A stretch of DNA of 64,000 nt from a virus (IMGVR_UViG_3300001765_000297), one strand, 5' to 3'; numbered from the stretch's first letter, positions 3,088 through 17,251 are shown. Program-made: numbers and translations. The notes: generated by a model from the letters alone, not told the origin.

Positions 3088-3348
3088 ATGGCAACTCAAA
3101 AATCCATCGACAAAAAGTACAACTTCAAGACAGGTTTTAATGTTGGCTATGTAGAACTAGATAACATTATTACGGGCAAAACTCAACCATATTTGAAAGT
3201 AAGTAAACTCAGAGGCACATATCCTAACTATGAAAGAAATTCATTTAAGGGTATTATAATGGATAACTTTAAAACATTCAAGGCAATCAGTATTAATGCC
3301 AAAGGTGAATATGTTTACAAAGAATGTAAGAATCCCTATCAGAAATGA
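3088..3348 (+). CDS. hypothetical protein
   Basis: ORF with promoter/leader. Confidence 0.5.
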   Translation: MATQKSIDKKYNFKTGFNVGYVELDNIITGKTQPYLKVSKLRGTYPNYERNSFKGIIMDNFKTFKAISINAKGEYVYKECKNPYQK

Positions 3349-3375
3349 AACCCTACGGGGTTTCTTTCCGTATAA
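3347..3375 (+). promoter_or_regulatory. terminator hairpin GAAACCC-tacg-GGGTTTC whose 5' arm is the -35 (GAAACC) of promoter ..CGTATAA(3369-3375)
   Basis: hairpin + motif spacing 16. Confidence 0.5.
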
Positions 3376-3399
3376 TCGACATAACCAAAACATAAAGAC

Positions 3400-3828
3400 A
3401 TGAGCAAATTAATTATCGGATTAAAATTTTCACCCGCAACACTTTTATCTGCAACCGCAATTGGTGTTACAAAAGTATTAGTTACTTATGGTGGTGGAAT
3501 GGGTGGTTCACATAAAACTTACTATTGCACAGATTTTCAATTGAAAAAGTCTAATGGAATGTATGTTGCTAAACTCACCAATGGTGAAGTAATTGAAATC
3601 AATCCTCGTTATGTGGTTGAAATCAAAACAAGGACATTAGTTAAGGTCATTACTGATAAGACTGCTCACGCAAATTATCATAACCCTACTGTTAAGACTT
3701 CATTACTTGTTGAGTATATTGAATTGGAACACAATGAAACCTTTGAAGCCACCAATGAAAATCGTAACACTTCAAAATTTGATGACAAACGTATTGTTAT
3801 CAGCTATGAAGAGAACGTGCCAAAATAG
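3400..3828 (+). CDS. hypothetical protein
   Basis: ORF with promoter/leader. Confidence 0.55.
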   Translation: MSKLIIGLKFSPATLLSATAIGVTKVLVTYGGGMGGSHKTYYCTDFQLKKSNGMYVAKLTNGEVIEINPRYVVEIKTRTLVKVITDKTAHANYHNPTVKTSLLVEYIELEHNETFEATNENRNTSKFDDKRIVISYEENVPK

Positions 3829-3927
3829 AAACCTTTTCTGTATTTTCGATATGCCCTTGCGTTGTGATAACGCAGGGGTTTCTTCATTTAAAGCTGCAGC
3901 TTTTTCCAGGATTTCACCGGTGAAAAC

Positions 3928-3955
3928 GTAACTTTTTTCCGGCAATTACGTATAA
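3928..3955 (+). promoter_or_regulatory. phage promoter GTAAC-N16-CGTATAA driving ORF-free transcript
   Basis: motif; no ORF downstream until next promoter at 4060. Confidence 0.5.
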
Positions 3956-3961
3956 GAATTG

Positions 3962-4045
3962 TCAGGGTGAAACTTGGGTGAAGTAATCCAACCCTACCTT
4001 ATGTTCTAATCATAGAATGATTCTAAATACTATATGCAAGTAAAT
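3962..4045 (+). ncRNA. candidate small RNA, family copy 1 (motif GTAATCCAACCCTACC 3983-3998, hairpin TTCTA-atca-TAGAA)
   Basis: promoter-driven, non-coding; shares motif with copies at 9925 and 16976. Confidence 0.3.
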
Positions 4046-4059
4046 ATAATTAATGCAAA

Positions 4060-4089
4060 TGAAACCTTTTTATATCATTCTGCGTATAA
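4060..4089 (+). promoter_or_regulatory. phage promoter TGAAAC-N17-CGTATAA
   Basis: motif. Confidence 0.55.
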
Positions 4090-4105
4090 AAAATAAAAAG
4101 AAATT

Positions 4106-4375
4106 ATGGCTAACTGTGGTTATAGTGCTGATAAAAAATTAATTGCCGATGCAATTAAGTCAGGCAAAACATTAGATATTAAAGAGAAAGATAATAGTAT
4201 AATCATTCTCTTTAAGAATAAAATAAATGCACTTCTTTTGGAGGACACAGTTTCAAATCATGAGTATAATGGTCATAAATATGAGTTTCATTCAGCATGG
4301 AATAAATTATCAAGACTATTAATTAAACTGAATCAGATTAGACAAAAGAATATGTACTACAAATCAATTGAATAA
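4106..4375 (+). CDS. hypothetical protein
   Basis: ORF with promoter. Confidence 0.5.
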   Translation: MANCGYSADKKLIADAIKSGKTLDIKEKDNSIIILFKNKINALLLEDTVSNHEYNGHKYEFHSAWNKLSRLLIKLNQIRQKNMYYKSIE

Positions 4376-4430
4376 ACGTAACCTTTCATAGTCATTTTGC
4401 GTATAATCAGCATAACCAAAACATAAAGAC

Positions 4431-5036
4431 ATGGCACTTATTTTAGTTAGTTGTGAAGAAAGTCAGGCAGTAACAAAAGCATTCAGAGCATTAGGGCATG
4501 AAGCATATTCAAATGACCTTAAACCTTGTAGTGGTGGACATCCTGAATGGCATTTGCAAATGGATTGCTTTGAAGCAATTGCATTAAAGTCTTGGGATTT
4601 ACTTATTGCTTTCCCTACTTGTACTTATCTTACAGTTAGTGCAAACAAATGGTATAAAGACCAACCTAAGAGAAAAAGTGGTGCTTTGGTAGGTGCGGAG
4701 AGAAGACAAGCAAGACTTGACGCAATTGATTTCTTCATGGCATTCGTTAATGCTGATGTACCGAGGATTGCAATTGAAAACCCTATTGGAGTTATGTCGA
4801 CAGTATATCGCAAACCCAATCAGGTTATACAACCTTGGATGTTTGGACATGGCGAAACCAAAGCAACTTGCTTATGGCTTAAGAACTTACCTAACTTGAA
4901 ACCAACAGATGTTGTTGAAGGCAGAGTTGGTGCAATGCATTTACTTCCTAAAACTGACAACAGAGCAGAATTAAGGTCAAAGACTTATCAAGGTGTTGCA
5001 GATGCAATGGCAAAACAATGGTCAGAGTGCTTATAG
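4431..5036 (+). CDS. truncated C5-cytosine-methyltransferase-like protein (motif IV PTC and motif VI ENP present; SAM glycine loop degenerate)
   Basis: LILVSCEESQAVTKAFRALGHEAYSNDLKP aligns to C5-MTase motif I region but lacks FxGxGG; FPTCTYLTVSANK ~ PCQxFSxAGK; IENPIG ~ ENV. Confidence 0.4.
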   Translation: MALILVSCEESQAVTKAFRALGHEAYSNDLKPCSGGHPEWHLQMDCFEAIALKSWDLLIAFPTCTYLTVSANKWYKDQPKRKSGALVGAERRQARLDAIDFFMAFVNADVPRIAIENPIGVMSTVYRKPNQVIQPWMFGHGETKATCLWLKNLPNLKPTDVVEGRVGAMHLLPKTDNRAELRSKTYQGVADAMAKQWSECL

Positions 5037-5100
5037 CACTTTGACTTTTTGTAACAACCGAATGTCCATTTTCGTATAATCATAACCAAAACAAGATAAC

Positions 5101-5469
5101 ATGAAACTCAATAACAAAACAATTCTCGTAGTAAGTGACAATGGTGAAATGGATATTTTCTTACTTGATGGTGGTGTTGCCACTATTCACCACAATGGCG
5201 AGAGATTCTTAACAACTTACATTCAGAATCGTGCAACACCTGACGACCTGAGAAATCCTGATTTTTGGACTTCTGATGTCATGAGTGATAGCAAACAGTA
5301 TATTAAAGACTGGAAACCTACACAGAAGTACATTAGTTCAAAAATGATTTTGGATGCAGCTCGTTGGCTTCTCGCAGGTTTTGGAAATGGTACTATCTTA
5401 TTCCTAAATAATTACAATGAAGTTGCTGACCTCATGGAGGAAGCTGGAATTTGGAATACTGCTGAGTAA
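5101..5469 (+). CDS. hypothetical protein
   Basis: ORF with promoter/leader. Confidence 0.5.
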   Translation: MKLNNKTILVVSDNGEMDIFLLDGGVATIHHNGERFLTTYIQNRATPDDLRNPDFWTSDVMSDSKQYIKDWKPTQKYISSKMILDAARWLLAGFGNGTILFLNNYNEVADLMEEAGIWNTAE

Positions 5470-5524
5470 TGTAACAAATTATTGTCCAATTACGTATAAT
5501 CAATGTACACTAAAACATAAAGAC

Positions 5525-5860
5525 ATGACAAAAAAAGAATGTGCAGAATTAAGCGAAAAGGCAACAGAGATTTCCGAAGGTGTTCAAAGAGCAATCAAAG
5601 AAGTCACCAAGGACAAACCACTAGTATTCTTTGGTGATGAACCTGAACAGGAAGACCTTGATGAAGCACCTTTTGGATACGCAGTTAGCCGACATGGAAA
5701 TTTCCTTGATGGCAATGTACAGAGGGTTTGCGGTGATGATGTCACACTCTTTTTAAGAGGCGATGATTGGGGCGACACAGTTGAACAAAACTTATCTGAC
5801 CTACCTTTCGAGGCACTGATTATGATTCTTGACAAACTTGAAGAAATATTGGAGGACTAA
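5525..5860 (+). CDS. hypothetical acidic protein (start moved to ATG at leader distance from promoter 5471-5499)
   Basis: -10 CGTATAA 5493-5499, 25-nt leader, ATG 5525. Confidence 0.5.
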   Translation: MTKKECAELSEKATEISEGVQRAIKEVTKDKPLVFFGDEPEQEDLDEAPFGYAVSRHGNFLDGNVQRVCGDDVTLFLRGDDWGDTVEQNLSDLPFEALIMILDKLEEILED

Positions 5861-5863
5861 ATT

Positions 5864-6208
5864 ATGGAACTCACATTAGTAAAAACCCGCACATTTAAAC
5901 TTGAACCCTATGGTAAGTTTAGAATTTCAATGGCGAGAAAAGCAAAAGGTTATCTACCAAATATTATTCCTCTACATGAATTGGATATTGACCACGATAC
6001 TTCGATGCCGTTCACAGAGCAACAGGAGAAAGATATTATAAAGTTAATGAAAGCCAATAAAACAGATATTCTAACTGATGGCTCATACTTTGGATTCTAC
6101 ACAAGAGCAGGAGGAGGCGAATTTGCAAGTCTGTGCCATATAAGACACCCAAAGCTAATAAAATATAGGGAAGATGAAAGTTTTAAGGAACTAGTAGACG
6201 GAGAATAA
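5864..6208 (+). CDS. hypothetical protein
   Basis: ORF translationally coupled to upstream gene. Confidence 0.5.
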   Translation: MELTLVKTRTFKLEPYGKFRISMARKAKGYLPNIIPLHELDIDHDTSMPFTEQQEKDIIKLMKANKTDILTDGSYFGFYTRAGGGEFASLCHIRHPKLIKYREDESFKELVDGE

Positions 6209-6260
6209 ACCGGTGAAATCCGGCACAAAAAATTGATTGTCCATGTTTTGGTTATATTAA

Positions 6261-6297
6261 GGGTGTAGTTGTTAACCAGACAACCACCCTTTTTTTA
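6261..6297 (+). terminator. intrinsic terminator GGGTGTAGTTG..CAACCACCC + T7
   Basis: hairpin + T-tract. Confidence 0.6.
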
Positions 6298-6365
6298 TTT
6301 AAGTAAAACGTAACCTTTTAATTGTTAATGTCGTATAACCATCATAACCACTAATAAATAGCACT

Positions 6366-7259
6366 ATGGACACAACAATCAAAAGTACTTACCCAATGGT
6401 AAGTTCACCCGAAGAAGTAAATGATAACGGTAAATTTTCAACACTTAATTTTGGTATGTTTACTACCCTAAAATATAATAGGGGTGAAGACAGTGGAATT
6501 GATAATAACCGTTTATCTAGGTTTAAGAAACTTTGGAATGATAATGAATATTTTAAAGATGATTTACATCTTTATGTTAATAGAGCATTAGAAACTATTG
6601 ACGGTCATCATCATTTACATCTTCATATATTTCTCAAAAGCATTGGTATCGACCTACCAATTAATTTTACAGTATTGACACAGGCAGAATATAATGAAGG
6701 TACATTACTTCAGAAAATTGGTGCGATTGCAAGGCGAAATGCAGTAACTTCAAAATGGGATAGTAAGGCTCATTTCAACGTAGCATTAAAATTACGTTTA
6801 CCTTTGGCAATTGCAATTCAGAATCTTAAAGCAGAGTATATGAGAAAGTATAGTACTGATGGTAGAATGATAACTCCATCACGTATTTTTGCCATTCTTA
6901 CATCGGATAGTAAATGGTTAAATAGTGATTTAGTAACTGTTGAAGATTATGGTAAGGAGGAATTAATACCGGTAATGTCTACCGAAAAATTTAAAAAAGA
7001 GTTTGAATTTGTTTGTAAGGTTATTAACTATCTTACCGAATGGAATTGTGTTTATGAAGAAACTGCAAAAATCACCCAATTTAATATGATACGTGCAACA
7101 ATGCCTATGATTTGGGATAATATGTTAAATATGGATAAATTTCTTGCAGAGATTGAATCAAAAGAATTGAAAGAGAGATTTAAGGGTGTGGCAAATACTG
7201 TCAAGGGTTGTGTAATGTACACTAAAAGATTTCAGAAGAAAATGTTAAACGAATATTAA
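6366..7259 (+). CDS. hypothetical protein (297 aa)
   Basis: ORF with promoter (6311-6345) and leader. Confidence 0.6.
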   Translation: MDTTIKSTYPMVSSPEEVNDNGKFSTLNFGMFTTLKYNRGEDSGIDNNRLSRFKKLWNDNEYFKDDLHLYVNRALETIDGHHHLHLHIFLKSIGIDLPINFTVLTQAEYNEGTLLQKIGAIARRNAVTSKWDSKAHFNVALKLRLPLAIAIQNLKAEYMRKYSTDGRMITPSRIFAILTSDSKWLNSDLVTVEDYGKEELIPVMSTEKFKKEFEFVCKVINYLTEWNCVYEETAKITQFNMIRATMPMIWDNMLNMDKFLAEIESKELKERFKGVANTVKGCVMYTKRFQKKMLNEY

Positions 7260-7272
7260 TAAATATAATAAT

Positions 7273-7313
7273 GGGGTTGCAATTTGTAACCCCATTTATT
7301 TTAACTCGTATAA
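7273..7313 (+). promoter_or_regulatory. terminator GGGGTT..AACCCC with -35 TGTAAC (7285-7290) in the hairpin, -10 CGTATAA 7307-7313
   Basis: hairpin/T-rich + motif. Confidence 0.55.
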
Positions 7314-7318
7314 TATCT

Positions 7319-7777
7319 ATGAATATATTTGAACTACAAACAGAAACCGTACTTAACAACCACGGGAATGTCCAATTAATTTATATTGGTGAAAGTGTTG
7401 TTGCAACCAAAATCTTAAAAGAATCAACAAATAAAAACAAGTTATTTAAAAATGCTTGTTCGCCATATTTAACACCAACTGGAAGACAAAAAAAAACTGA
7501 GTTTGTTTATCATTCACCATCAAATAATATAGATATAAGAATTGAATGTAAGTCTAGAAAAACCCTGGGTTTAATTGGTGAGATAACAGACGAATTAAAT
7601 TTTATTACTAACATACCTGAGAAACAATATTGTTTGGTTTTAAGCGAAATATTACTCAGTAATTATATTTTAGATAGAATAAATACCATTGTAGTAGAAA
7701 AGGAATTGCAAGATAAGATTTGGGTTGGTAGTTTAGAACAGTTTAAAAGTTTCTTAAAGGAACATATTAAATTGTAA
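7319..7777 (+). CDS. hypothetical protein; apparently leaderless (ATG 5 nt after -10)
   Basis: first ATG after promoter; ORF-track start 7271 lies inside terminator. Confidence 0.5.
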   Translation: MNIFELQTETVLNNHGNVQLIYIGESVVATKILKESTNKNKLFKNACSPYLTPTGRQKKTEFVYHSPSNNIDIRIECKSRKTLGLIGEITDELNFITNIPEKQYCLVLSEILLSNYILDRINTIVVEKELQDKIWVGSLEQFKSFLKEHIKL

Positions 7778-7802
7778 CCTTATCAATGTACATAACGTAT
7801 AA
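7773..7802 (+). promoter_or_regulatory. phage promoter TGTAAC-N17-CGTATAA
   Basis: motif. Confidence 0.6.
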
Positions 7803-7807
7803 TACTC

Positions 7808-8002
7808 ATGATACTTTTAACAACCATAACAACTAAGATTCAGAAAGTCATTAAACCCGAAGATGATATAAGGTTTCTTGATGTACGCTACTTGGATAAG
7901 TGGATAAGAAATTATCCACAGTGTTTTCCAAAGTTCGTATTGAATAATGAGCATAAGATATTGTTCAACCCTAATAAACTAAGATATGAATTTCACAAAT
8001 GA
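7808..8002 (+). CDS. hypothetical protein; leaderless-type start
   Basis: ATG 5 nt after -10. Confidence 0.4.
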   Translation: MILLTTITTKIQKVIKPEDDIRFLDVRYLDKWIRNYPQCFPKFVLNNEHKILFNPNKLRYEFHK

Positions 8003-8420
8003 ATTAGATTTTCTTGGCAGCTTTTGGAAAGAAGCACAGAGAATCACAGGTAACATATCAACAGAATTGCCAAAGATTAATCCGAAGGCAAAAATGATTG
8101 GTAAGCACCTTGCAGTTGTTCAATATAAAGACCTTGAAAATTGGAGTGTTGAGGGCTTGTTCGGCAAGTCTGAAAATCTTGATGCACTTGCAAGAAAGAT
8201 TTCATTTATGGTAAATAAAGGTGATGCACAGAATGTCAAACCTCTTATTGAAAGAATATTAACTAAGGGTGTTAAGGCACAAACAAAACCAAAATTAGTA
8301 CGCACTGGCTATACTTGTGATGCAGAATTCTATGGCTTTGGTCATTTCCGTTGGGATTACAAAGCATACATATTAAAGGCAGATGAATTGAAAAGAGTAA
8401 GAGAGTATTTTAATATGTAA
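7986..8420 (+). CDS. hypothetical protein
   Basis: ORF overlapping upstream gene end. Confidence 0.5.
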   Translation: MNFTNELDFLGSFWKEAQRITGNISTELPKINPKAKMIGKHLAVVQYKDLENWSVEGLFGKSENLDALARKISFMVNKGDAQNVKPLIERILTKGVKAQTKPKLVRTGYTCDAEFYGFGHFRWDYKAYILKADELKRVREYFNM

Positions 8421-8469
8421 CATTTCAATGTTGATTTGCGTATAAGCTGCATAACCAATACATAGAGAC

Positions 8470-8814
8470 ATGAGCGAAATTAAATTTGTTAAGTTAACCG
8501 AAGAAGAATTTGAAAGCCGTTTTAATATGGTAATGAATCACTTCTATGCAGACCCTTGTGATTGCCCGTTTGGTGGTGGAATGTTTGAAACCTATGGACA
8601 GGAAGTTGAGTACATCAACAACATCATGAAAGGTACTGATGAAAACCTGAAACGCAGAATTTGGACTATTTTGGATTCCGATGGAGTAATGTGTTTTGTA
8701 AGTGGCTATCACTTTGTAAATCGTTTTGGCTATCTTATTACCGAGGAAGAAGTTGAAGAAGGAACTGAATACACCTTAGAACTCATGGGAACTGAGGATG
8801 AAGAAGAAGAATAA
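8470..8814 (+). CDS. hypothetical protein with acidic C-terminal tail
   Basis: ORF with promoter 8419-8450 and leader. Confidence 0.55.
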   Translation: MSEIKFVKLTEEEFESRFNMVMNHFYADPCDCPFGGGMFETYGQEVEYINNIMKGTDENLKRRIWTILDSDGVMCFVSGYHFVNRFGYLITEEEVEEGTEYTLELMGTEDEEEE

Positions 8815-8832
8815 ACAAATCTACTAAAATTA

Positions 8833-8876
8833 AAACCCTCTTGGTGTAACCCTAGAGGGTTTTTTTACGTATAACC
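8833..8876 (+). repeat. 44-bp terminator/promoter cassette, exact duplicate of 9448..9491
   Basis: AAACCCTCTTGGTGTAACCCTAGAGGGTTTTTTTACGTATAACC identical at both loci; hairpin AAACCCTCT/AGAGGGTTT with GTAACC in loop. Confidence 0.8.
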
Positions 8877-8898
8877 TGCATAACCAATACATAAAGAC

Positions 8899-9114
8899 AT
8901 GGAAAAGAAATACTTTTTATTCGGAAGTGAAATTTGTGATGCAATGGAAGAAGATGGCATTGAAGCTGCGCTTAAAGTTGCTGAGGAAGGTGGTTTTGCA
9001 ACCTACTATTGGGATGAACACAGTACTCCAAGTGAACTACTTGCAGAGTACGATGGTTGGAACTCCTATATGGAAATCACCGAGGCAGACTACATCAGAT
9101 TTCAAAACTTATAA
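8899..9114 (+). CDS. hypothetical protein
   Basis: ORF with promoter/leader. Confidence 0.5.
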   Translation: MEKKYFLFGSEICDAMEEDGIEAALKVAEEGGFATYYWDEHSTPSELLAEYDGWNSYMEITEADYIRFQNL

Positions 9115-9201
9115 TCACCGGTAATTTAATTAAAAACCCTGGAAAACGTAACCTTTTCCGGGGTTTTTGCGTATAACCATCATAACCAATACATACACAA
9201 A

Positions 9202-9435
9202 ATGGGAATACTAAGAATTAGTGCTAAATGTTCTGACTTATGTTGGACTGAGTACACAGATGCTAAAGGTAATAAAACCGAGAGTGATGGCTATGTGCCA
9301 GAAGGAATTGGAATATCTTCTGATGGTGATTGTGGTGACTATGTTAGCCTTGATATCGACATGCAGACTGGTCAAATTCAGAATTGGAAACCTGTTAGCG
9401 ATGCTCGTGTAATCAAAGCACAGAAATCTGCATAA
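9202..9435 (+). CDS. hypothetical protein
   Basis: ORF with promoter (9151-9180) whose -35 sits in hairpin CCCTGGAAAA..TTTTCCGGGG. Confidence 0.5.
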   Translation: MGILRISAKCSDLCWTEYTDAKGNKTESDGYVPEGIGISSDGDCGDYVSLDIDMQTGQIQNWKPVSDARVIKAQKSA

Positions 9436-9447
9436 CTTTTAAAATAT

Positions 9448-9491
9448 AAACCCTCTTGGTGTAACCCTAGAGGGTTTTTTTACGTATAACC
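9448..9491 (+). repeat. 44-bp terminator/promoter cassette, exact duplicate of 8833..8876
   Basis: see 8833. Confidence 0.8.
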
Positions 9492-9513
9492 ACTATAACT
9501 AATACATAAAGAC

Positions 9514-9726
9514 ATGAATTACAAAGTAGTATTTGAAATCGAAGTGGAAGCCGAATCACCACTTGATGCAGCAAAAGAAGTTCAAGAAATGTTGAACGAG
9601 CATAATAACTGGCAGTATTACATTCAATCCTCTGAGGGGTCAGAAGATGTGTTTAGTGTTGACCTACAAGAGGAAGACGAAGATGCGGTACTTAAAGTGG
9701 ATAAATATATTCCAATGATTAAATAA
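9514..9726 (+). CDS. hypothetical acidic protein
   Basis: ORF with promoter/leader. Confidence 0.5.
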   Translation: MNYKVVFEIEVEAESPLDAAKEVQEMLNEHNNWQYYIQSSEGSEDVFSVDLQEEDEDAVLKVDKYIPMIK

Positions 9727-9866
9727 TGGCAGTAAATCTCCACTGTCCTAATTGCGGAGAAAGTCTCGGCAAGGACAAAGAAAATCCAAAGGTAGCTAGT
9801 TGTGGTAATTGTGGTGAAAACGACATCAGAAACCCAAATGGTTATGATGATGAAGAAGATAATTAA
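9726..9866 (+). CDS. small zinc-ribbon protein (46 aa; CPNCG..CGNCG)
   Basis: TAATG overlap with upstream gene; two CxxC pairs. Confidence 0.35.
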   Translation: MAVNLHCPNCGESLGKDKENPKVASCGNCGENDIRNPNGYDDEEDN

Positions 9867-9889
9867 ACCGGAAATTCTCCGGTTTTTTT
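9867..9889 (+). terminator. intrinsic terminator ACCGGA..TCCGGT + T7
   Basis: hairpin + T-tract. Confidence 0.6.
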
Positions 9890-9918
9890 GTAACATATTT
9901 CCAGGCTTTTGCGTATAA
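9889..9918 (+). promoter_or_regulatory. phage promoter TGTAAC-N17-CGTATAA driving ORF-free transcript
   Basis: motif. Confidence 0.55.
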
Positions 9919-9924
9919 ATCATA

Positions 9925-10008
9925 TCACCGGTTGGCAATCAAAAATTGCCGAGAGAGTAGACTCCACCCTACCTTATATTCTGATATGGGTAGTAATACT
10001 ATCCACTT
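9925..10008 (+). ncRNA. candidate small RNA, family copy 2 (hairpin TTGGCAAT..ATTGCC, motif GTAGACTCCACCCTACC 9957-9973)
   Basis: promoter-driven, no ORF. Confidence 0.3.
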
Positions 10009-10037
10009 TGTAACCTTTTTAATGTAGTTACGTATAA
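10009..10037 (+). promoter_or_regulatory. phage promoter TGTAAC-N16-CGTATAA
   Basis: motif. Confidence 0.55.
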
Positions 10038-10042
10038 TACCT

Positions 10043-10183
10043 ATGAAAGAATTTAAAACCATACATTCAGGTGTTAATAAATCAGACGCAAATAAACTCG
10101 TTGGATGGTGGAATGCAAATACACCTAATTATTACTTCAAAAAGAAAGTAGGAAAACTCTATAATATAATAAAACAACTATAA
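10043..10183 (+). CDS. small hypothetical protein (46 aa), leaderless-type
   Basis: ATG 5 nt after -10; stop abuts next ATG. Confidence 0.3.
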   Translation: MKEFKTIHSGVNKSDANKLVGWWNANTPNYYFKKKVGKLYNIIKQL

Positions 10184-10184
10184 T

Positions 10185-10376
10185 ATGGAAACCAAAGCAA
10201 GTATGGTAGTTATGTCACACCTTAGTGATGCACAGGAATGCATAGGAATATGTATGTCTCAGGAAAACGCACATAAGAATATTAACTTCGCAAAGTTCGT
10301 TATATTGGAAACCGATGGCGACCTTAACATGATGATTGATGCTGATTCTCTGTGGGAAAAGTTTAATAAAAGATAG
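10185..10376 (+). CDS. hypothetical protein
   Basis: ORF. Confidence 0.45.
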   Translation: METKASMVVMSHLSDAQECIGICMSQENAHKNINFAKFVILETDGDLNMMIDADSLWEKFNKR

Positions 10377-10435
10377 TAAAAACGTAACCTTTCCTAACTA
10401 CTTATCGTATAACCACTATAACCAATACATATAAT

Positions 10436-11245
10436 ATGAAAGACATTAAATTTTCGACAATTGCAAAGGCTTGTAAAACAGTTGGTGTATCTTACCTTGG
10501 TGGTGTTAGTCTTAGTGCCAAAATGGTAAAGAATGAAAAAGTAGGTGTAATGACTTATAGCATTAATCTCAGTCCTGCCGAGACGAGCGGATATGATGTT
10601 TGCAGTCACAGTACTGCTGAATGTAGGTCGGGTTGTTTGGCTACAAGTGGTCACGCCAAAATGGATATCCAAAGTGGTAAGACTATTATTAGCGATGCAA
10701 GGATTAAAAAGACAAGGTTGTTTTTTGAGAACCAAGAATTTTTCATGGAATGGCTTATTGCTGAATTACTGAAATATCGTAAACAAGCCATTAAGAAAGG
10801 TATGGTTTTTTCTGCAAGGCTTAACACGATTTCAGATATCGATTGGGCAAACGTAAGAACTTTGGGAGGTTCAAATATCTTCGAATTGTTTTCTACAGTA
10901 CAGTTTTATGATTACACCAAAAACCCAAACAAGTTTGTTGGGAAACCTGAAAACTATCACCTGACTTTCAGTTTCACAGGTCGCAATTGGATTGCTTGTA
11001 ACACCTTATTGAAACGTGGAGAGAATATTGCTATGGTATTCAATGTTAACAAGGTTGAAGATTTACCAAAGACCTACAAAGGTTTTAAGGTTATCAATGG
11101 AGACGAAACCGATTACAGACCTAATGACGAGAAAGGTGTTATTGTAGGGTTGAAATGGAAACGTATTGCAGATAAGGTTGCCGAGGCACAAGTAAGACAG
11201 TCAATGTTCGTGGTGCAACCACTTGATGTTAACTGTGGATATTAA
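10436..11245 (+). CDS. hypothetical protein (269 aa, Cys/His cluster CSHSTAECRSGC)
   Basis: ORF with promoter 10382-10415 and leader. Confidence 0.6.
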   Translation: MKDIKFSTIAKACKTVGVSYLGGVSLSAKMVKNEKVGVMTYSINLSPAETSGYDVCSHSTAECRSGCLATSGHAKMDIQSGKTIISDARIKKTRLFFENQEFFMEWLIAELLKYRKQAIKKGMVFSARLNTISDIDWANVRTLGGSNIFELFSTVQFYDYTKNPNKFVGKPENYHLTFSFTGRNWIACNTLLKRGENIAMVFNVNKVEDLPKTYKGFKVINGDETDYRPNDEKGVIVGLKWKRIADKVAEAQVRQSMFVVQPLDVNCGY

Positions 11246-11266
11246 AAACTAATGTACATAAAAAGA

Positions 11267-11305
11267 CCTTGCAAGTGTAACCCTGCAAGGTCTTTCTTCG
11301 TATAA
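11267..11305 (+). promoter_or_regulatory. terminator CCTTGCA..TGCAAGG with -35 TGTAAC (11276-11281) in loop; -10 CGTATAA 11299-11305
   Basis: hairpin + motif spacing 17. Confidence 0.55.
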
Positions 11306-11329
11306 TGTCCATAACCAAACTCATATAAC

Positions 11330-11542
11330 ATGGTAAAATTTTATTACACAGTAGAAAAAGAAGTTGAAGATGAAAATCTCACTGGAAACAAAACAATAAC
11401 TGTTTATAGTATTGTTGATAATGAACCTGTAAAGCTAACAGATATTGAGTCTGTAATTGAAGACAACTCCAAAGAGAAGATTGTTGATTATTTTGATGAA
11501 AATGGTTTTGGCGATGCAGAATATGAATTAATATTACTGTAA
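11330..11542 (+). CDS. hypothetical acidic protein
   Basis: ORF. Confidence 0.5.
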   Translation: MVKFYYTVEKEVEDENLTGNKTITVYSIVDNEPVKLTDIESVIEDNSKEKIVDYFDENGFGDAEYELILL

Positions 11543-11591
11543 CCTTTTGATGTTATTCTTCGTATAATCAGCATAACTTAAAACAGACAAA

Positions 11592-12107
11592 ATGAAAATC
11601 GAATTAAAACGTATCAGTTTCAACGAACGAATGTCCGAAGAAACAAATTGCTTTTCTGCTGACCTCTATATTGATGGTAAGAAAGTTGGTAGTTGTAAGA
11701 ATGATGGTCGTGGCGGTTGTACTAATTATGGTGGGAACTCAACGGCTGACTATGATATTATCAAAGAAGCCGAAGCATATTGCAAGACATTGCCCAAAGT
11801 GAAATCAAGTTTTGACAATTTCGAATTTGAGCAAAGTCTTGAAAGTGTTATTGATGAATTGCTTGAAGAATATCTGAAAGCCAAAGAAAAAAGTAAAGTA
11901 CAAAAACTTATGGAGAAAGCAATTCTTTGGGGTGTTCCTGATAGTGGTAGATATACTATGATAAAATATAATATACCATTATCACACGTGGCTAATGTTC
12001 GACTTAAGAAATTACAGGAAACCGTTGATGCAATTAAAATAAAACATTGTGCAGGAAATGTACAAATCTTGAACACCAACCTTGAGGCTCTTGGAATAGT
12101 ATTATAA
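11592..12107 (+). CDS. hypothetical protein
   Basis: ORF with promoter 11541-11575. Confidence 0.55.
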   Translation: MKIELKRISFNERMSEETNCFSADLYIDGKKVGSCKNDGRGGCTNYGGNSTADYDIIKEAEAYCKTLPKVKSSFDNFEFEQSLESVIDELLEEYLKAKEKSKVQKLMEKAILWGVPDSGRYTMIKYNIPLSHVANVRLKKLQETVDAIKIKHCAGNVQILNTNLEALGIVL

Positions 12108-12125
12108 ACCCAACTATCAATTAAA

Positions 12126-12167
12126 ATCCTCTCAGAATGTAACTATCTGAGGGGATTTTTCGTATAA
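12126..12167 (+). promoter_or_regulatory. terminator ATCCTCTCAGA..TCTGAGGGGAT + T5 with -35 TGTAAC (12138-12143) in loop; -10 CGTATAA 12161-12167
   Basis: hairpin + motif. Confidence 0.55.
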
Positions 12168-12191
12168 CTAATGTACACTAAAACATATGAT

Positions 12192-12380
12192 ATGAAAGCA
12201 AAAAGATTTTTCGAGATTTACATTAAGTTTCTCAGTGGAGAAGGAATTGATTTTAAAGCCGATGGAATAAAGAAAGGTGAAATCTTGGAATTGATTAGCT
12301 TTGCTCAGGCACATCTGAGTACTTCGGCTTCCAATTCATTTGTATATTCTCTTGTTGCAGAAGTATTAGAAAAACCGTAA
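12192..12380 (+). CDS. hypothetical protein (start moved to ATG 24 nt after -10)
   Basis: ORF-track ATG 12171 lies 3 nt after -10; 12192 matches standard leader length. Confidence 0.45.
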   Translation: MKAKRFFEIYIKFLSGEGIDFKADGIKKGEILELISFAQAHLSTSASNSFVYSLVAEVLEKP

Positions 12381-12430
12381 CAATTAATGTCCGGCATTCG
12401 TATAATGTACATAACTAATACATAAATATT

Positions 12431-12634
12431 ATGGAAGACTTAACGTATGACAATGATATCCGAGGCGATTATGCCTTATTCATTGATGCAAAACATTTTC
12501 TTGACGAATGGGAACTAGATGATGAAACCAAAAAACTGGTAGGTTCTAAACTCACATTCTTCCGGGTTATCCAAGATGGTGAACAAGGTAATCACGGTTG
12601 GATTGAGAATGGTGAAATAATTCAATGGGGATAA
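12431..12634 (+). CDS. hypothetical protein
   Basis: ORF with promoter 12378-12410. Confidence 0.5.
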   Translation: MEDLTYDNDIRGDYALFIDAKHFLDEWELDDETKKLVGSKLTFFRVIQDGEQGNHGWIENGEIIQWG

Positions 12635-12656
12635 TACTAACATAATAATTATATCA

Positions 12657-12860
12657 ATGTTAAAACCAGTAAGAAAAAACGTAAGTGCTGAAACATTAAA
12701 GTATAATATCTTTATATGTCAAAAGGAAATTGATGATGCTCGGCAAATTGTTAAGGATGCCTATAAGGAAATCCGTAAAACTATAAAAGAGACTGAAAAA
12801 ATAATTACCAAACAACGCCATTATAAAGAATTGTTAAAGCAATGTAACAATCACCGGTGA
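12657..12860 (+). CDS. hypothetical basic protein
   Basis: ORF, no own promoter seen. Confidence 0.4.
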   Translation: MLKPVRKNVSAETLKYNIFICQKEIDDARQIVKDAYKEIRKTIKETEKIITKQRHYKELLKQCNNHR

Positions 12861-12899
12861 TTTTGCGTATAATAAGTATTAACCACAAATACATATATT

Positions 12900-13592
12900 A
12901 TGAAAACTAGAGAAGAATTAATCGATGCAGTTATTGCTGAACTTAAAGCAGACATCCTTTCAGGTGACGTAACAGTACTGGAAGAAATCCTAGGTTTTGT
13001 TGAGAAAGACAAACTCGTTGAGTCATTACCAGAAGAACGCTGGTCAGAATTCCGGACCTCTTCAGATTACTTCAGCATCAAAGCAACTGGTTTCAATGAA
13101 GTTATTCAGAGGGAAGAAATTCAAATCCATTGTGGAGAGAATGGAAACCTGATGATTTATAAAACCCCGGAAGGATTTGTTGTTGATGCTTATGATGCTA
13201 ATGGCGAGAACATAGACACTATGGCAATCTGGGAAGACGGTATCAATCCACTTGTTGAGGGTGAAGATTGTATAAAGGATGATGAAGGCAACTGTGCTTT
13301 CTGTGGTCAGAAATGTTGGGAAGGCGAAATGTGTGACGAACAACAGGGTGATGGTTTCCAAGAACCCACTTGTTTCAGTCCTGCTGAACTCCGGGAATTT
13401 ATTGAAGAATGGGGGCAAACTCATCATGAAATCTGTGCCGAACTCGAATATTGGGAAAACGGTAATGACACACAAGACCTACTAATGGTCGACTACTTCT
13501 GGCTTGAACCTATGAATGTATGGCTGCCAAAGCTATCATCAATGTACACAGAAAGACAGGAAGCAATTGCGAAATTCCTGAGATTAGGATAA
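12900..13592 (+). CDS. hypothetical acidic protein (230 aa)
   Basis: ORF with promoter 12844-12880. Confidence 0.6.
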   Translation: MKTREELIDAVIAELKADILSGDVTVLEEILGFVEKDKLVESLPEERWSEFRTSSDYFSIKATGFNEVIQREEIQIHCGENGNLMIYKTPEGFVVDAYDANGENIDTMAIWEDGINPLVEGEDCIKDDEGNCAFCGQKCWEGEMCDEQQGDGFQEPTCFSPAELREFIEEWGQTHHEICAELEYWENGNDTQDLLMVDYFWLEPMNVWLPKLSSMYTERQEAIAKFLRLG

Positions 13593-13680
13593 TCAATGTC
13601 CGATATTAAATCCCTCTGTAACATTACAGGGGGATTTTTCGTATAAGCAATGTACATAATAATAACCAATATATAAAGAT

Positions 13681-13962
13681 ATGAAAACATCATTAGTAAT
13701 ACCAATGCCTAACGAGGTTAATACCTTGGATGATGTACGGAAATTCTTTACAGACCTGAAAGCTGCGGACTATATCTTTCATCCCGATGATGATTTCACC
13801 GAGTACAGCAATACCAATATTAATGATGGTAAGCTGCTGAATGTTATAATGCAAAGATGTTGGGTAATATGTGAAGACCAATGTACAGGTACTGATGATA
13901 TTTATACAATTGCTATAAATATTCAGTATCCAGAAAACACACCAATAGGATATTTACTGTAA
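13681..13962 (+). CDS. hypothetical protein
   Basis: ORF with promoter in hairpin 13605-13650. Confidence 0.5.
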   Translation: MKTSLVIPMPNEVNTLDDVRKFFTDLKAADYIFHPDDDFTEYSNTNINDGKLLNVIMQRCWVICEDQCTGTDDIYTIAINIQYPENTPIGYLL

Positions 13963-14009
13963 CATTTACAGGGGAATTTTCGTACAACACTCATAAAAAA
14001 ATAAATATT

Positions 14010-14300
14010 ATGGCAGCTAAAAAATCTCAGAGTCTAAGAGAAAAACTCACAGACTCAATAATGAAAAACAAGTATGGTGATGATGACCCAAAGTACGACC
14101 AGGATAACAGGAATTTCCTGAACACTCTTTCAATCCTTGAATTGGAGCGTATGTGTGAAGAGGAATTCGATGTTGATGGTGAGGACGATGAAGATGAAGA
14201 CGATGAAAGTGATTTTGGTGATGAACTTAATGGTGAATTCTTTGACCCACTTGATGATGAATATAATGCACATGAAAGTAATTTCGATGACGAACTGTAA
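14010..14300 (+). CDS. highly acidic small protein (candidate DNA-mimic/anti-restriction type)
   Basis: 96 aa, long D/E runs (GEDDEDEDDESDFGDE..). Confidence 0.5.
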   Translation: MAAKKSQSLREKLTDSIMKNKYGDDDPKYDQDNRNFLNTLSILELERMCEEEFDVDGEDDEDEDDESDFGDELNGEFFDPLDDEYNAHESNFDDEL

Positions 14301-14358
14301 CCTTTGTTGCAGTTCTTCGTATAATTGTTATAATTAATATTCACTAATACATATCACG

Positions 14359-14649
14359 ATGGAAGATTTTAAAGTAAAGCACACGATAACTGATAGGCAA
14401 GCAATTGTCAAAGCATTATGCTTACCTTCGTCAATACCTGATGGGTTCAAACTTAAGCCGCTTAAACCAATTGGGGTGTCGAAATTCAAAGGCGATAATA
14501 TGCCTTCCAATTGGAGTGTTAATACCAAATTTACAATTGGTTCAGAATATCCACTTTATGACGATGAAAACGGTTTAATATCGGTGGGTAATGATGGAGT
14601 TGGTTACAAGGTTATTGGTACTGCTTGGACTAAAATAAAATGGATTTAA
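14359..14649 (+). CDS. hypothetical protein
   Basis: ORF with promoter 14298-14340. Confidence 0.5.
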   Translation: MEDFKVKHTITDRQAIVKALCLPSSIPDGFKLKPLKPIGVSKFKGDNMPSNWSVNTKFTIGSEYPLYDDENGLISVGNDGVGYKVIGTAWTKIKWI

Positions 14650-14705
14650 TTCCGTAACCCTTTTTATCTATTCATCATATAACCATCATAACTAATACAT
14701 ATAAC

Positions 14706-15461
14706 ATGAAAGACTTTAATTTTAATAGTATTGACTGGTCAGAGTTGAGAAACCAGAAGAGAATGTTACTTGAAACCATTAATAATGATGCTGTTGACCC
14801 TGAGCATAAGGAAGGTCTGGAAGGTATCTTGAACCTTATTGACAGCCTACAAGACCATGCTGTGGATGAATTGGGAATTCCCGAAATGAATGTATATGAT
14901 TTCGAAGCCGAGGATGAACGTGAGAAAGAAACTCCCGAAGAAACCTTTGCCCGTGAGAATGCCCAGATTATTTTCCAAATGCGTATTGAAGGCGAAGGTC
15001 TTTATGTGGATGATGAAATGTCAAAGGAATTCATTGAAGGCATTGTTGATGATGAACAACACCGGTCAGCGATTAAGAATGCTATTAGGTTAAGAATTCT
15101 GGAAGAAGTTCAGGATTTCCCAAATGATTTCCAAAGGGATGCAGATGGTAAGCTAACCTATGATTACACCATGTATGATTATGGTTATGAAATTGAAAGC
15201 TATTGCAGGGAAATATTCTACAATGGAAAAACAAAAGAAGTATGGGTGTGCCGTGAATGTGGAAGTGACAGCGTTGAAAGTCATGCACTGGTTAATCCGA
15301 ATTGCCCAACCGATAATCCTACGGTAATTAACCTTGATGATTGTGAAAGTAATTATTGTTTCGATTGCCAGAAGAAAGTTGTTGTGGAAAAAAGAATAAT
15401 CCCAGTTCTTGCAATAAATGCCGAAATCGGAACAACTGATGGACACATCACAAAGAGATAA
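14706..15461 (+). CDS. hypothetical acidic protein with C-terminal Cys cluster (zinc-binding?)
   Basis: ORF with variant promoter (CATATAAC) 14653-14690. Confidence 0.6.
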   Translation: MKDFNFNSIDWSELRNQKRMLLETINNDAVDPEHKEGLEGILNLIDSLQDHAVDELGIPEMNVYDFEAEDEREKETPEETFARENAQIIFQMRIEGEGLYVDDEMSKEFIEGIVDDEQHRSAIKNAIRLRILEEVQDFPNDFQRDADGKLTYDYTMYDYGYEIESYCREIFYNGKTKEVWVCRECGSDSVESHALVNPNCPTDNPTVINLDDCESNYCFDCQKKVVVEKRIIPVLAINAEIGTTDGHITKR

Positions 15462-15502
15462 TAATATTGGATAGCAATGTCCGATTGGAGGGGAGCACTT
15501 AA

Positions 15503-15543
15503 AAACCCTGTTTCTGAGTATTTATCGGAAACAGGGTTTTTTT
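15503..15543 (+). terminator. intrinsic terminator AAACCCTGTTTC..GAAACAGGGTTT + T7 abutting ATG 15544
   Basis: 12-bp stem + T-tract. Confidence 0.7.
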
Positions 15544-15906
15544 ATGAAACGAATTAGCCAAGACATACTAAACGAATTAGTATATAATATCAAACGAATT
15601 AAATTTAAAAACATCATTCAAGACCTGAAACTAGAATATTGCGAAGACATTGATGGCGACTATATCTACCTGGTTTTGATTAACATAAAGAAATCCCAAA
15701 GACGTAATGGATATGGAGCTGCAGTACTCTCCGAAATTATTAAAGCTGCAGACAATCATGGTGTCAGAATTAGATTGTGGGCAACAAATGTATATGGTTC
15801 AGATTTAAAGCAGCTCTATGGTTTCTACAGGAAACATGGATTTGTTTTCGTGGATAATGATAGTGAGGGGCACATGGTTTACTATCCGGATAAAACTAAA
15901 AATTAA
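15544..15906 (+). CDS. GNAT-family N-acetyltransferase (minimal, 120 aa)
   Basis: motif A RRNGYGAAVLSEIIKAA..G, LYGFYRKHGF. Confidence 0.6.
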   Translation: MKRISQDILNELVYNIKRIKFKNIIQDLKLEYCEDIDGDYIYLVLINIKKSQRRNGYGAAVLSEIIKAADNHGVRIRLWATNVYGSDLKQLYGFYRKHGFVFVDNDSEGHMVYYPDKTKN

Positions 15907-15928
15907 ATTAAAAATACTTTGTTTATTT

Positions 15929-15958
15929 TGTAACATTTACTAGCTTTGCTTCGTATAA
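15929..15958 (+). promoter_or_regulatory. phage promoter TGTAAC-N17-CGTATAA driving ORF-free GC-rich transcript
   Basis: motif. Confidence 0.6.
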
Positions 15959-15965
15959 CATTCAT

Positions 15966-16470
15966 AAAACATCTGGGGCGAAACACAAAGTAGTGAGGTA
16001 GTCACGGAACAAGTCCTAGGTTTGTAACCTAGGCGAACTTGAAACAAACGTTCTTTAAGATATTGAAAGAGGTACGTCACAGGTGACGTTTATAATTGGC
16101 TGGTTCAATGCCCGTGTCCTCTTTCTTCGATGCAAATAGCCAACCGTTAATGGGGTCTCCGAAAGGAGCAGGAGCAAACGCAGTTATATTAGGATAGAGT
16201 AATTCCCTTTTACGAGGTGAGCCAGCTTAACGAACTGGATACAGCGTTGAAACTCTGACGGCAATGGTTGCACAGAGGCGTAAGCCTTGCGCCTACAAGG
16301 ACTGTGTAAGATTAATTTCCCCTGGGTTTCCGGAAACTCACATCGTGCAGAATCGCAAGGATGTCTGGGGGAAATTTTCCAAGCATGCTATAGGTCTCCT
16401 AGAGAGACATAAAATATTTCCTTATTGTCTAGTTTTCATTTTATTTGTATTATGTGTGTTCATAGTGATT
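15966..16470 (+). ncRNA. candidate large structured ncRNA (identity unknown)
   Basis: promoter at 5' end, terminator 16475-16507 at 3' end, locally high GC, perfect hairpins (CCTAGGTT-tgta-AACCTAGG; CGTCAC-ag-GTGACG; CTCC-GAAA-GGAG), no credible ORF. Confidence 0.4.
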
Positions 16471-16474
16471 AGTT

Positions 16475-16536
16475 CCCCCGGATTGTGGTTAGTCCGGGGG
16501 TTTTTTTGTAACCATTTCTCAAGCAGCTTCGTATAA
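16475..16536 (+). promoter_or_regulatory. terminator CCCCCGGA..TCCGGGGG + T7 followed immediately by promoter TGTAAC(16507-16512)-N17-CGTATAA(16530-16536)
   Basis: hairpin + T-tract + motif. Confidence 0.65.
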
Positions 16537-16557
16537 TACTAAACAAATTTAAATCTT

Positions 16558-16923
16558 ATGAGAGATAGCTGGTTAACTCCAAATGGAGAAGTAATTGAGG
16601 TTGGAAATTTTCAACACAATAGATATGCACAGAATCTTCTGGAAGAAGAATTGGGGTTTATGGGAATGATGGAATATATGGATAAAGAAAATATATCCTC
16701 TCCTTACGAAGTTCTACATAAACGAGGATGGGTACGTATTAAATATAATACCTCATATTTGCCTAGAATTGAAATACTTGGTGGCTGTATCGATTTAACA
16801 AAACAAGCTAAAAATACGATAGACCCGGCAATGAATGAAAAACAATTGAAGGTAGCTAAAAAGCTATGCGAAGATTGTAATACAGAATTTCATGTAGCTA
16901 TTAATGATAAGCGTTTCTGGTAA
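16558..16923 (+). CDS. hypothetical protein
   Basis: ORF with promoter. Confidence 0.5.
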   Translation: MRDSWLTPNGEVIEVGNFQHNRYAQNLLEEELGFMGMMEYMDKENISSPYEVLHKRGWVRIKYNTSYLPRIEILGGCIDLTKQAKNTIDPAMNEKQLKVAKKLCEDCNTEFHVAINDKRFW

Positions 16924-16939
16924 ATTAAATCAAATTAAT

Positions 16940-16969
16940 TGTAACCCTACCACCGGTAATTCCGTATAA
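16940..16969 (+). promoter_or_regulatory. phage promoter TGTAAC-N17-CGTATAA driving ORF-free transcript
   Basis: motif. Confidence 0.55.
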
Positions 16970-16975
16970 CATACA

Positions 16976-17075
16976 TACGAACCACCTAAACGTAACTGGA
17001 ACTTACCAGAGACCGAGTAGACTCCACCCTACGCAATATTCTGCTTATTCAGAATCTTTCTAAATAGCAATATTT
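16976..17075 (+). ncRNA. candidate small RNA, family copy 3 (hairpin CTGG-aactta-CCAG, motif GAGTAGACTCCACCCTACG 17015-17033, hairpin ATTCTG-cttatt-CAGAAT)
   Basis: promoter-driven, no ORF. Confidence 0.3.
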
Positions 17076-17104
17076 TGTAACCTTGTTTCCCGGAATTCGT
17101 ATCA
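17076..17104 (+). promoter_or_regulatory. phage promoter TGTAAC-N16-CGTATCA (tandem with 17189)
   Basis: motif. Confidence 0.45.
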
Positions 17105-17188
17105 TGGGTAAATTTAACAGGCTCGGTAATACACCTTATTATATATACAACATTCGTTTTTGGCAATTCAAAAATAGTTAAGTATATT

Positions 17189-17217
17189 TGTAACAAACCC
17201 TGAAACATTTCGTATAA
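17189..17217 (+). promoter_or_regulatory. phage promoter TGTAAC-N16-CGTATAA for rIIA
   Basis: motif. Confidence 0.55.
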
Positions 17218-17251
17218 GCATCATAATTTAACCACATAAAAATTCAAGACT

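Follow-up and report, generated by a model that had tools for sequence, protein, structure and literature searches.

The oop RNA of phage lambda is a short constitutive promoter-terminator unit of the early region which is frequently convergent with the neighbouring gene; it works as an antisense RNA against the 3' end of cII and is not known to have a folded core that unrelated phages conserve. The put sites of HK022 and the nut sites of lambda are paralogous structured RNAs located just 3' of phage promoters; they work in cis, on the polymerase that transcribes them, and depend on downstream genes in the same orientation. Small RNAs of phages have only lately been recognised as effectors, the examples being Racrs, pseudo-ToxI and the vrRNAs. 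Here we describe a family of small RNA elements, named the GAGUAGACUCC three-way-junction RNA, three copies of which (r1, r2 and r3) occupy about positions 3962-4035, 9925-10005 and 16975-17075 of a 64-kb stretch of the viral genome IMGVR_UViG_3300001765_000297 (hereafter the window). Of these, r2 carries both the invariant block of the family and its full set of helices (P1, P2 and P3), and r3 carries the block. Our tentative reading, to which we give slightly less than an even chance, is that r2 and r3 are functional members of a widespread and uncatalogued phage RNA gene family that would act in trans through its fold, r1 being degenerate.

The family resembles oop in its layout but, unlike oop, keeps an invariant junction whatever the neighbouring gene. 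The arrangement in the window is also similar to that of put and nut; unlike these, one third of the family faces a convergent gene. Among the described effectors, Racrs (see PMC10651486) are small phage non-coding RNAs with their own promoters, often several per genome, which occupy a host protein in trans as members of this family would; they are recognisable copies of host CRISPR repeats with the repeat hairpin, whereas the family forms a three-way junction and no CRISPR array with this core was seen among the matches listed. Pseudo-ToxI, of the type III antitoxin kind (see PMC3594212), is a structured phage RNA which neutralises a host protein by mimicry and, as in the family, places conserved sequence in a compact fold. 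ToxI-type RNAs are tandem 34-36-nucleotide (nt) repeats cut by the toxin, whereas each RNA of the present family is a solitary unit under a separate promoter, not arrayed in tandem and not linked to a toxin gene. The VIPR vrRNAs, with 9-16 YNNGG tandem repeats beside a vipr (RAMP) gene (bioRxiv 10.64898/2026.04.26.720920), are likewise phage RNAs of ~100 nt that occur several to a locus, variable in the 5' part but structured and invariant in the 3' part. In contrast to these, the 5' parts of the family are hairpins without a 5-nt periodicity, and there are neither YNNGG repeats nor an adjacent vipr gene. FopS/GibS of Bacteroides is a multi-copy small RNA (sRNA) family with canonical Bacteroidota promoters, found also in a phage, which binds the RNA-recognition-motif (RRM) protein RbpB (PMC11697453); it consists of a single-stranded 5' seed and a terminator and is in Rfam, whereas our family has another fold and no Rfam match. 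Both FopS and vrRNA identities were excluded after comparison with these two papers.

The original prediction held that the window encodes three paralogous, promoter-driven small RNAs. The promoter motif, GTAAC-N(16-17)-CGTATNA, is present at 40 sites in the window, where shuffles would lead one to expect 0.17; in its strict form it falls on the plus strand at 29 sites within 2452-19612 and on the minus strand at 11 sites beyond 25338. As predicted, no ATG-started plus-strand open reading frame (ORF) runs across the cores, and the promoters at 3928, 9890 and 16941 are followed by 85-150 ORF-free nt and then by another promoter. The cores of r2 and r3 are identical over 18 nt (GAGTAGACTCCACCCTAC), and the invariant block R-G-A-G-U-A-G-A-C-U-C-C is exact in both; chance would give 0.10 matches to the 16-mer in the window when up to three mismatches are allowed. 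A sequence-only profile of the family gave 39.8 bits for r2 and 28.8 bits (E 5.5e-8) for r3. When a covariance model was built from IMG/VR sequences only, with no window sequence, it matched r2 from end to end (41.7 bits, E 1.6e-10, model positions 1-51); r3, a member of a subclass with a hairpin ahead of a (G/A)GACCGA linker, for that reason scored just 11.8 bits (E 0.21). The ACCGA linker is also found in seven of the retrieved loci (L068, L077, L108, L155, L159, L173 and L184).

The third paralogue fared less well. With the sequence profile r1 obtained 6.2 bits (E 0.75), its 3' half (ACCCTACCTTATGTTCT) alone aligning, and it has GAAGTAATCC in place of the invariant block. It is tied to the other copies by its position, by ACCCTACCTTATRTTCTRAT, which it has in common with r2, and by the palindrome AGAATNWTTCTAAATA, in common with r3 only. 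It may thus be a decayed or strongly diverged paralogue, its kinship to r2 and r3 being much weaker than theirs to one another. Similarly, a 5' hairpin had been proposed for all three copies; folding supports it in r2 (GGCAAT/ATTGCC, z -3.0) and r3 (CTGG/CCAG, z -2.1) and is unconvincing in r1 (z -0.2). The proposed common start of the 3' hairpin is alike in r1 and r2, r3 having caATATTCTGct. The CYUUAUAUU tail of r2 is found in most family members.

The element is distributed far more widely than this phage, in agreement with the proposal of an sRNA family. Searches with exact and degenerate patterns, fuzzy rescans, nhmmer and covariance models yielded 173 distinct copies in the loci retrieved (L-numbered), so the family comprises at least this number. 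The exact 16-mer was present in 12 IMG/VR stretches, in 10 of them in an intergenic position with a strong Bacteroidota promoter ~45-60 nt 5', a hairpin, a purine-rich linker, the core and often a T-run. Degenerate patterns matched at least 120 IMG/VR stretches in each of two scans, and at least 120 metagenome stretches, where 82 of the first 100 had a covariance-model match at E <= 0.01. A scan of 185,579 genomes with a 17-mer (the AC variant, see below) or its complement returned five matches, of which two were genuine, both on Bacteroidota/Bacteroidales contigs of metagenome-assembled genomes in a phage-like context. In the cultured Tenacibaculum phage Larrie (ON950054), gaps that lack annotation between genes of the minus strand contain plus-strand copies near 16966, 18815 and 19447, and a convergent copy on the minus strand ~60 nt 3' of the first. 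One contig often holds more than one copy, and the cores vary (fuzzy rescans, nhmmer); positions 10-11 of the core read AC, AA, GA, GU, GC, AU or AG, and the 3' ends CUAC, CUGC, CACGY and others. A strict TAnnTTTG -7 box of the Bacteroidota type lies a median of 48 nt upstream of 40 of 146 copies (9 in controls); a recognisable promoter thus precedes many copies, not most. Members of a large subclass start with GGCCUG a few nt after a TGATAAT-like box, which ends a few nt before the 5' GGG. Most copies lie either directly 3' of a promoter-like sequence or in an ORF-free interval. An AU-rich hairpin often follows the element, with a run of at least five T in 36 of 146 copies. Since not all copies carry Bacteroidota-type promoters, the family may be found in phages that infect more than one phylum.

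No tandem arrays of the core were encountered: among the matches listed there were at most three, irregularly spaced, per IMG/VR stretch and at most two per metagenome stretch, and those in genomes were single. This bears on the idea that the RNA is an anti-defence decoy, mimicking a solitary CRISPR repeat as Racrs do or a type III antitoxin in the manner of pseudo-ToxI and so poisoning the cognate protein, which we hold to be improbable. The repeats of Cas12a, Cas13a, Cas13b and Cas13d are not known to resemble the element in more than a few bases; the element occurs in phages with at least two promoter types, unlike one host-specific repeat; and tandem repeats together with a toxin-bearing host locus were not found in the host loci scanned for the AC variant. 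The decoy would be a special case of an RNA acting in trans through its fold, and the features of the element (phage-encoded, apparently promoter-driven, multi-copy, small, structured) are those of Racr (see PMC10651486) and pseudo-ToxI (see PMC3594212).

The consensus consists of an optional 5' hairpin, (A/C)GGG-Y-Y, a variable hairpin (P2), R-A-R, the hairpin GAG-UAGA-CUC, a C, R-N-C-C-U-R-C and an AU-rich hairpin or U-run. The core had been thought to look single-stranded. Comparison with relatives, the check proposed with the original prediction, instead places it in a junction, with GAG-UAGA-CUC as a hairpin and R-N-C-C paired to the 5' GGG(Y)(Y). Covariation supports a roughly 50-nt three-way junction, strongly in P2 and more weakly in P1. 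In a gapless alignment of 38 sequences (A4), 85.7% of the cells were paired against 82.2% after shuffling (0/500), with a covariation score of 0.238 against 0.163, seven pairs changed on both sides, and 28-48% paired when the partners were slid. For 79 model-aligned IMG/VR sequences the values were 82.4% against 71.3% (0/500) and 0.232 against 0.097 (slid, 31-55%), and for 76 metagenome sequences outside the model building 82.6% against 74.5% (0/500) and 0.233 against 0.110 (slid, 31-55%). The bulk of the signal comes from P2, in which 5-6 of seven pairs are changed on both sides and which also passed a permutation test (5.07 vs 4.33 +/- 0.08; 0/300). The innermost pair of P1 switches between CG, UA and UG (22, 15 and 12 in the 79 IMG/VR sequences; 33, 13 and 8 in the 76 metagenome sequences), which accounts for the A/G variation at core position 10. 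Some 20 nucleotides are nearly invariant and are concentrated in the junction, where RAR and C hardly vary, and in the tetraloop hairpin.

Conservation at the level of DNA (a protein-binding, origin-associated or pac-associated sequence) is extremely improbable as an explanation. In several phage groups CCCCC direct repeats and a terminase gene lie just 3' of the element, and the block that follows some copies, module 2, is a DNA palindrome. However, P2 pairing is kept while its sequence and length change, G-U pairs are frequent (UG at the P2 base in 37 of the 38 sequences of A4) and make sense only in RNA from one strand, and the orientation to the upstream promoter is fixed wherever a promoter is recognisable. 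The repeated protein-binding element offered as an alternative in the original prediction may hold at the RNA rather than the DNA level.

A competing fold was also considered, an H-type pseudoknot in which GUAG pairs with CURC and the upstream GGG with CUCC; RNAalifold chose GUAG:CUAC (UA 47, UG 10). It was rejected in favour of the junction because CACGY, CCGAAC and other 3' variants keep GUAGACUCC yet destroy the GUAG:CUAC stem.

The same pairing bears on the proposal that the core recognises a complementary target. Under it the RNA would be a seed-pairing sRNA, whose C/U-rich core is an accessible seed for a host or phage transcript containing GGAGUCUAC or GGGUGGAG. The succession of 5' hairpin, conserved stretch and 3' hairpin or U-run is like that of classic bacterial sRNAs, multi-copy sibling sRNAs are known, such as FopS in Bacteroides (PMC11697453), and the weakness of P1 means that the core may open. 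The core, however, falls within P3 and P1, and R10 covaries with its 5' partner. In the window there were no antisense sites to the core and no enrichment of GGAGTCTAC or GGGTGGAG sites, and the few genome matches to the 17-mer or its complement were never in a host gene context. The best duplex with ribosomal RNA (rRNA), to helix 42 of 16S rRNA (-23.4 kcal/mol with E. coli rRNA), was equalled by 18-54% of shuffled cores, and mimicry of that helix was no better than with shuffled cores. Pairing with a target is therefore not borne out, and we regard a seed-pairing sRNA as unlikely.

The layout of the copies argues for a stand-alone small RNA and against a riboswitch, attenuator or nut/put-like element as the general function. 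The window copies, and the relatives with the strict box, have a promoter of their own directly 5' of an ORF-free element. The next ORF (at least 70 amino acids (aa), within 600 nt) was on the same strand in 75 of the 173 copies, convergent in 58 and absent in 40; because one third of the copies face a convergent gene, the element is not a dedicated leader. Clustering of the neighbouring ORFs revealed no universal partner, target or recurring downstream family; those that recur (terminase large subunit, DUF932 and GP88-family genes) are mostly convergent and confined to related contigs. Neither a constant position in cis nor recurring co-directional genes were seen over the 173 copies. It is accordingly quite unlikely that the element is a cis-acting leader, be it a nut/put-like signal for processive antitermination, an attenuator or a riboswitch controlling read-through downstream. 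Such a leader would suit the window copies, which have a promoter on one side and the next gene on the other and lack a strong terminator at their 3' side; the many relatives in which the 5' arm of the AU-rich hairpin or U-run begins right after P1, as in riboswitch expression platforms; and the strongly conserved junction nucleotides, which are typical of aptamers. Nevertheless the element is followed by a separate promoter, both in the window and in many relatives, the downstream genes have no common family, and no Rfam riboswitch or leader was matched even at E <= 10.

In four unrelated contigs two copies of the RNA gene are convergent, their 3' ends a few tens of nt apart. The pairs are 8222(+)/8283(-) in L077 and ~9540(+)/9607(-) in L133, with others at ~2286(+) in L053 and at 2158(+) in L203, the last accompanied by a minus-strand core near 2220. 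Transcripts from the two members of such a pair would be complementary to each other if they extended beyond the core.

The family, its fold and its breadth appear uncatalogued in Rfam 15 and in the literature searched by sequence string, although phage small RNAs as a kind are known. Rfam 15 gave no matches at the gathering score for the window and nine loci, and at E <= 10 nothing that overlapped the element in the window and seven loci with canonical members; the string search returned unrelated matches only, for example the termini of hantaviruses by coincidence. A csRNA catalogue with 10,006 candidates (PMC10690425) may already contain the family without a name. ARAGORN detected no transfer RNA (tRNA) or tmRNA genes in the window. 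Mimicry of the end of tRNA-Ala or tmRNA (GGGGCUGA...CUCCACC) was rejected as variant-specific, being gone in the CCAACC, CCGUCC and CCGACC variants.

The pattern of conservation, ~20 near-invariant nucleotides in a three-way junction of a ~50-nt RNA, is that of ribozymes and aptamers, and the P2 loops are often GNRA-like or A-rich (GAGA, GAAA, ACAA). A new small self-cleaving ribozyme, or an aptamer for a metabolite or signalling nucleotide, is still very improbable: no hammerhead, twister, pistol, hatchet or hepatitis delta virus (HDV) model was matched, the CUGANGA/GAAA hammerhead core is absent, its UGA falling in the covarying P2, and there is neither a candidate ligand nor a conserved cleavage context. 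Inspection by eye also gave no likeness to hammerhead, HDV, twister or pistol.

From the conserved RNA-level structure, the ~20 invariant nucleotides, the multiple copies and the independence of neighbouring genes we infer that the RNA is expressed and acts in trans through its invariant junction and hairpin. As we picture it, an RNA of ~50-60 nt would be transcribed as its own unit, here from promoters probably read by a phage sigma factor of the extracytoplasmic function (ECF) type and in many other phages from host-type promoters. It would fold with P1 (5' GGG(Y)(Y) with R-N-C-C(U)), a P2 of variable sequence and length and P3 (GAG-UAGA-CUC), and its likely mode would be to bind or titrate a conserved protein or other host or phage factor early or in the middle of infection. 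It would be neither a partner in antisense seed pairing nor a leader of the downstream gene.

Several points weigh against r2 and r3 being functional copies of such a trans-acting RNA. P1 is short and imperfect, with 67-72% of its cells paired; its permutation test was negative in a broad window (4.63 vs 4.73) and modest in a fixed register (p ~0.02). P3 and most of the junction are invariant, so that covariation neither supports nor contradicts P3. The covariance-model alignments were fitted to the structure and then tested on it, and the sequences are mutually related. The foreign-only structural model does not match r1, which is outside it. No canonical terminator follows r1-r3 in the window; there the RNA could be no more than the 5' portion of a longer transcript made by read-through. 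Within 3 kb of the RNA no protein family recurs consistently. Finally, transcription of the family and its binding to a partner are predicted from sequence.

A broader proposal, which we consider somewhat unlikely, is that the RNA is a general aptamer weapon, one that phages of very different kinds would make in many copies as infection begins and that would capture a conserved bacterial factor; candidates are a nuclease of a defence system, a regulator that binds RNA, or part of the machinery for transcription or translation. If true, it would represent a new class of RNA-based effector for host takeover or anti-defence, unrelated to mimics of CRISPR repeats or antitoxins. The abundance of the trans-acting RNA proposed for r2 and r3, its extreme conservation in multiple copies and its presence in a cultured phage-host pair suggest an important role. 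The family adds to the catalogues of RNA families and should improve the annotation of seemingly empty intergenic regions of phages; in the window, the intervals between tandem promoters would be genes rather than spacers.

Table 1. Predicted features of the three copies and their surroundings in the window
Feature	Coordinates	Strand	Basis	Remarks
Host-type (Bacteroidota) promoter ahead of sigma gene	828-858	+	promoter pattern	TTTG-N19-TAtcTTTG
ECF-like sigma factor gene	895-1548	+	Pfam Sigma70_r2 (6e-7), Sigma70_r4_2 (5e-9)	217 aa
r1 promoter	3928-3955	+	GTAAC/CGTATAA motif scan	
r1, diverged or decayed copy	3962-4003	+		GGGT...GAAGTAATCCAACCCTACCTTAT; GGG, CCA and CCCTAC-CTTAT kept; invariant hairpin GAGTAGACTC lost
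Module 2 after r1	4004-4029	+		AT-rich palindrome TTCTAatcaTAGAATGATTCTAAATA
Second promoter after r1	4061-4089	+	read from sequence	GAAAC-N17-CGTATAA variant; serves ORF starting 4106
r2 promoter	9890-9918	+	motif scan	GTAACATATTTCCAGGCTTTTGCGTATAA; phage-specific GTAAC-N17-CGTATAA type
r2, canonical three-way junction	9925-9974	+	covariance model, sequence profile, fold z	
r2 P1	9930-9932 with 9966-9968	+	junction model	GGT with ACC
r2 P2	9934-9939 with 9945-9950	+	junction model	GGCAAT with ATTGCC
r2 P3	9955-9957 with 9962-9964	+	junction model	GAG with CTC; loop TAGA 9958-9961
r2 invariant core	9957-9972	+		GTAGACTCCACCCTAC
r2 3' tail and hairpin	9973-10004	+		CTTATATTCTGAT, then hairpin GGGTAGTAATACTATCC (9988-10004); without G+C-rich terminator
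Second promoter after r2	10010-10037	+	motif scan	serves ORF starting 10043
r3 promoter	16941-16969	+	motif scan	
r3, hairpin-(G/A)GACCGA-GUAGACUCC subclass	16990-17034	+		hairpin CTGG 16996-16999 with CCAG 17006-17009; core 17017-17032
r3 possible closing helix	16991-16994 with 17030-17033	+		CGTA with TACG
Module 2 after r3	17038-17066	+		AT-rich palindrome/hairpin ATTCTG...CAGAAT, then CTTTCTAAATA
Two more promoters after r3	17077-17104 and 17190-17217	+	motif scan	upstream of the rIIA-like gene

The ECF -35/-10 form of the phage motif is similar to that of the SigW promoter of B. subtilis (TGAAAC-N16-CGTATA). Because of this form, and because a protein with Sigma70_r2 and Sigma70_r4_2 domains is encoded behind a Bacteroidota-type promoter, the 40 sites are probable promoters of a phage sigma cascade begun by that host-type promoter; those of r1-r3 are, like the others, probably read by the product of the sigma gene (Table 1). 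With GAAAC as its -35 element, the second promoter after r1 falls outside the strict-motif list. Hairpins resembling terminators lie against the next promoter, or overlap it, at 3853-3879, 5020-5046, 7270-7296, 8848-8861, 9463-9476, 9865-9885 and 16475-16500, the first of these and that at 9865-9885 ending the upstream units just 5' of r1 and r2. The promoters at 8846 and 9461 are identical and each spacer contains the hairpin AACCCTAGAGGGTT and a T-run; termination and re-initiation signals are therefore fused there.

The gene 17252-19543 specifies an rIIA-like protein (tblastn), and the next ORF (387 aa, no Pfam match) may be rIIB. A second ORF-free interval between two promoters, 17105-17189, lies upstream of the rIIA-like gene; it contains CACCTTATTATATATAC, faintly like the 3' tail of the family, and may be another decayed copy. 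Other products recognised with Pfam in the window are a C5 cytosine methylase, a GmrSD_N-domain protein, an RNA ligase, an AAA_21/AbiEii-like ATPase and an SF1 helicase, and an 831-aa protein has a weak ART-PolyVal match; the coordinates listed with this gene content are, besides the rIIA-like gene, 19647-20810, 23043-23936, 30903-31718, 41074-43569, 44653-45693, 49787-50593 and 58542-60077. No close relative of the phage was found in INPHARED, megablast giving a single 40-nt match in the methylase, and the rIIA-like protein as query retrieved no IMG/VR loci.

Module 2 follows family members in nine other loci as well (L169, L192, L089, L124, L138, L177, L147, L153 and L127), and in Polaribacter and Lak phages it stands alone. 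The palindrome, AT-rich and of the form TTATTTAGAAT-S-ATTCTAAATAA, keeps its sequence in unrelated phages, with or without the RNA element (Polaribacter Freya and Danklef, Prevotella Lak and many IMG/VR contigs); besides the two positions in the window it was located at 2500-2524 in Polaribacter phage Freya_1 (L204) and in L169, L192, L089, L147, L153, L127, L154 and L190. In Freya its place is between two structural genes, with a TAtaTTTG box directly 3' of it. Possible roles are those of a terminator hairpin and of an operator bound by a protein.

Iteron-like direct repeats with CCCCC occur directly 3' of the RNA gene, as four copies of CCCCCATCATATTAAACA in L089, L124, L138, L169, L177 and L192 and four copies of TACCCCCTATTGAATTGC in L091 and L127; repeats of the CCCCC type are also present in L093, L119, L191 and L197. 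Since those of the CCCCCATCATATTAAACA and TACCCCCTATTGAATTGC groups precede a convergent gene for the large subunit of the terminase, these zones may represent a pac/cos or origin region. In one subclass (L012, L141, L178, L186, L196, L208, L228, L242 and L250) the string GCTATACAC recurs just before, in or after the RNA element, and may be a phage-specific promoter or repeat.

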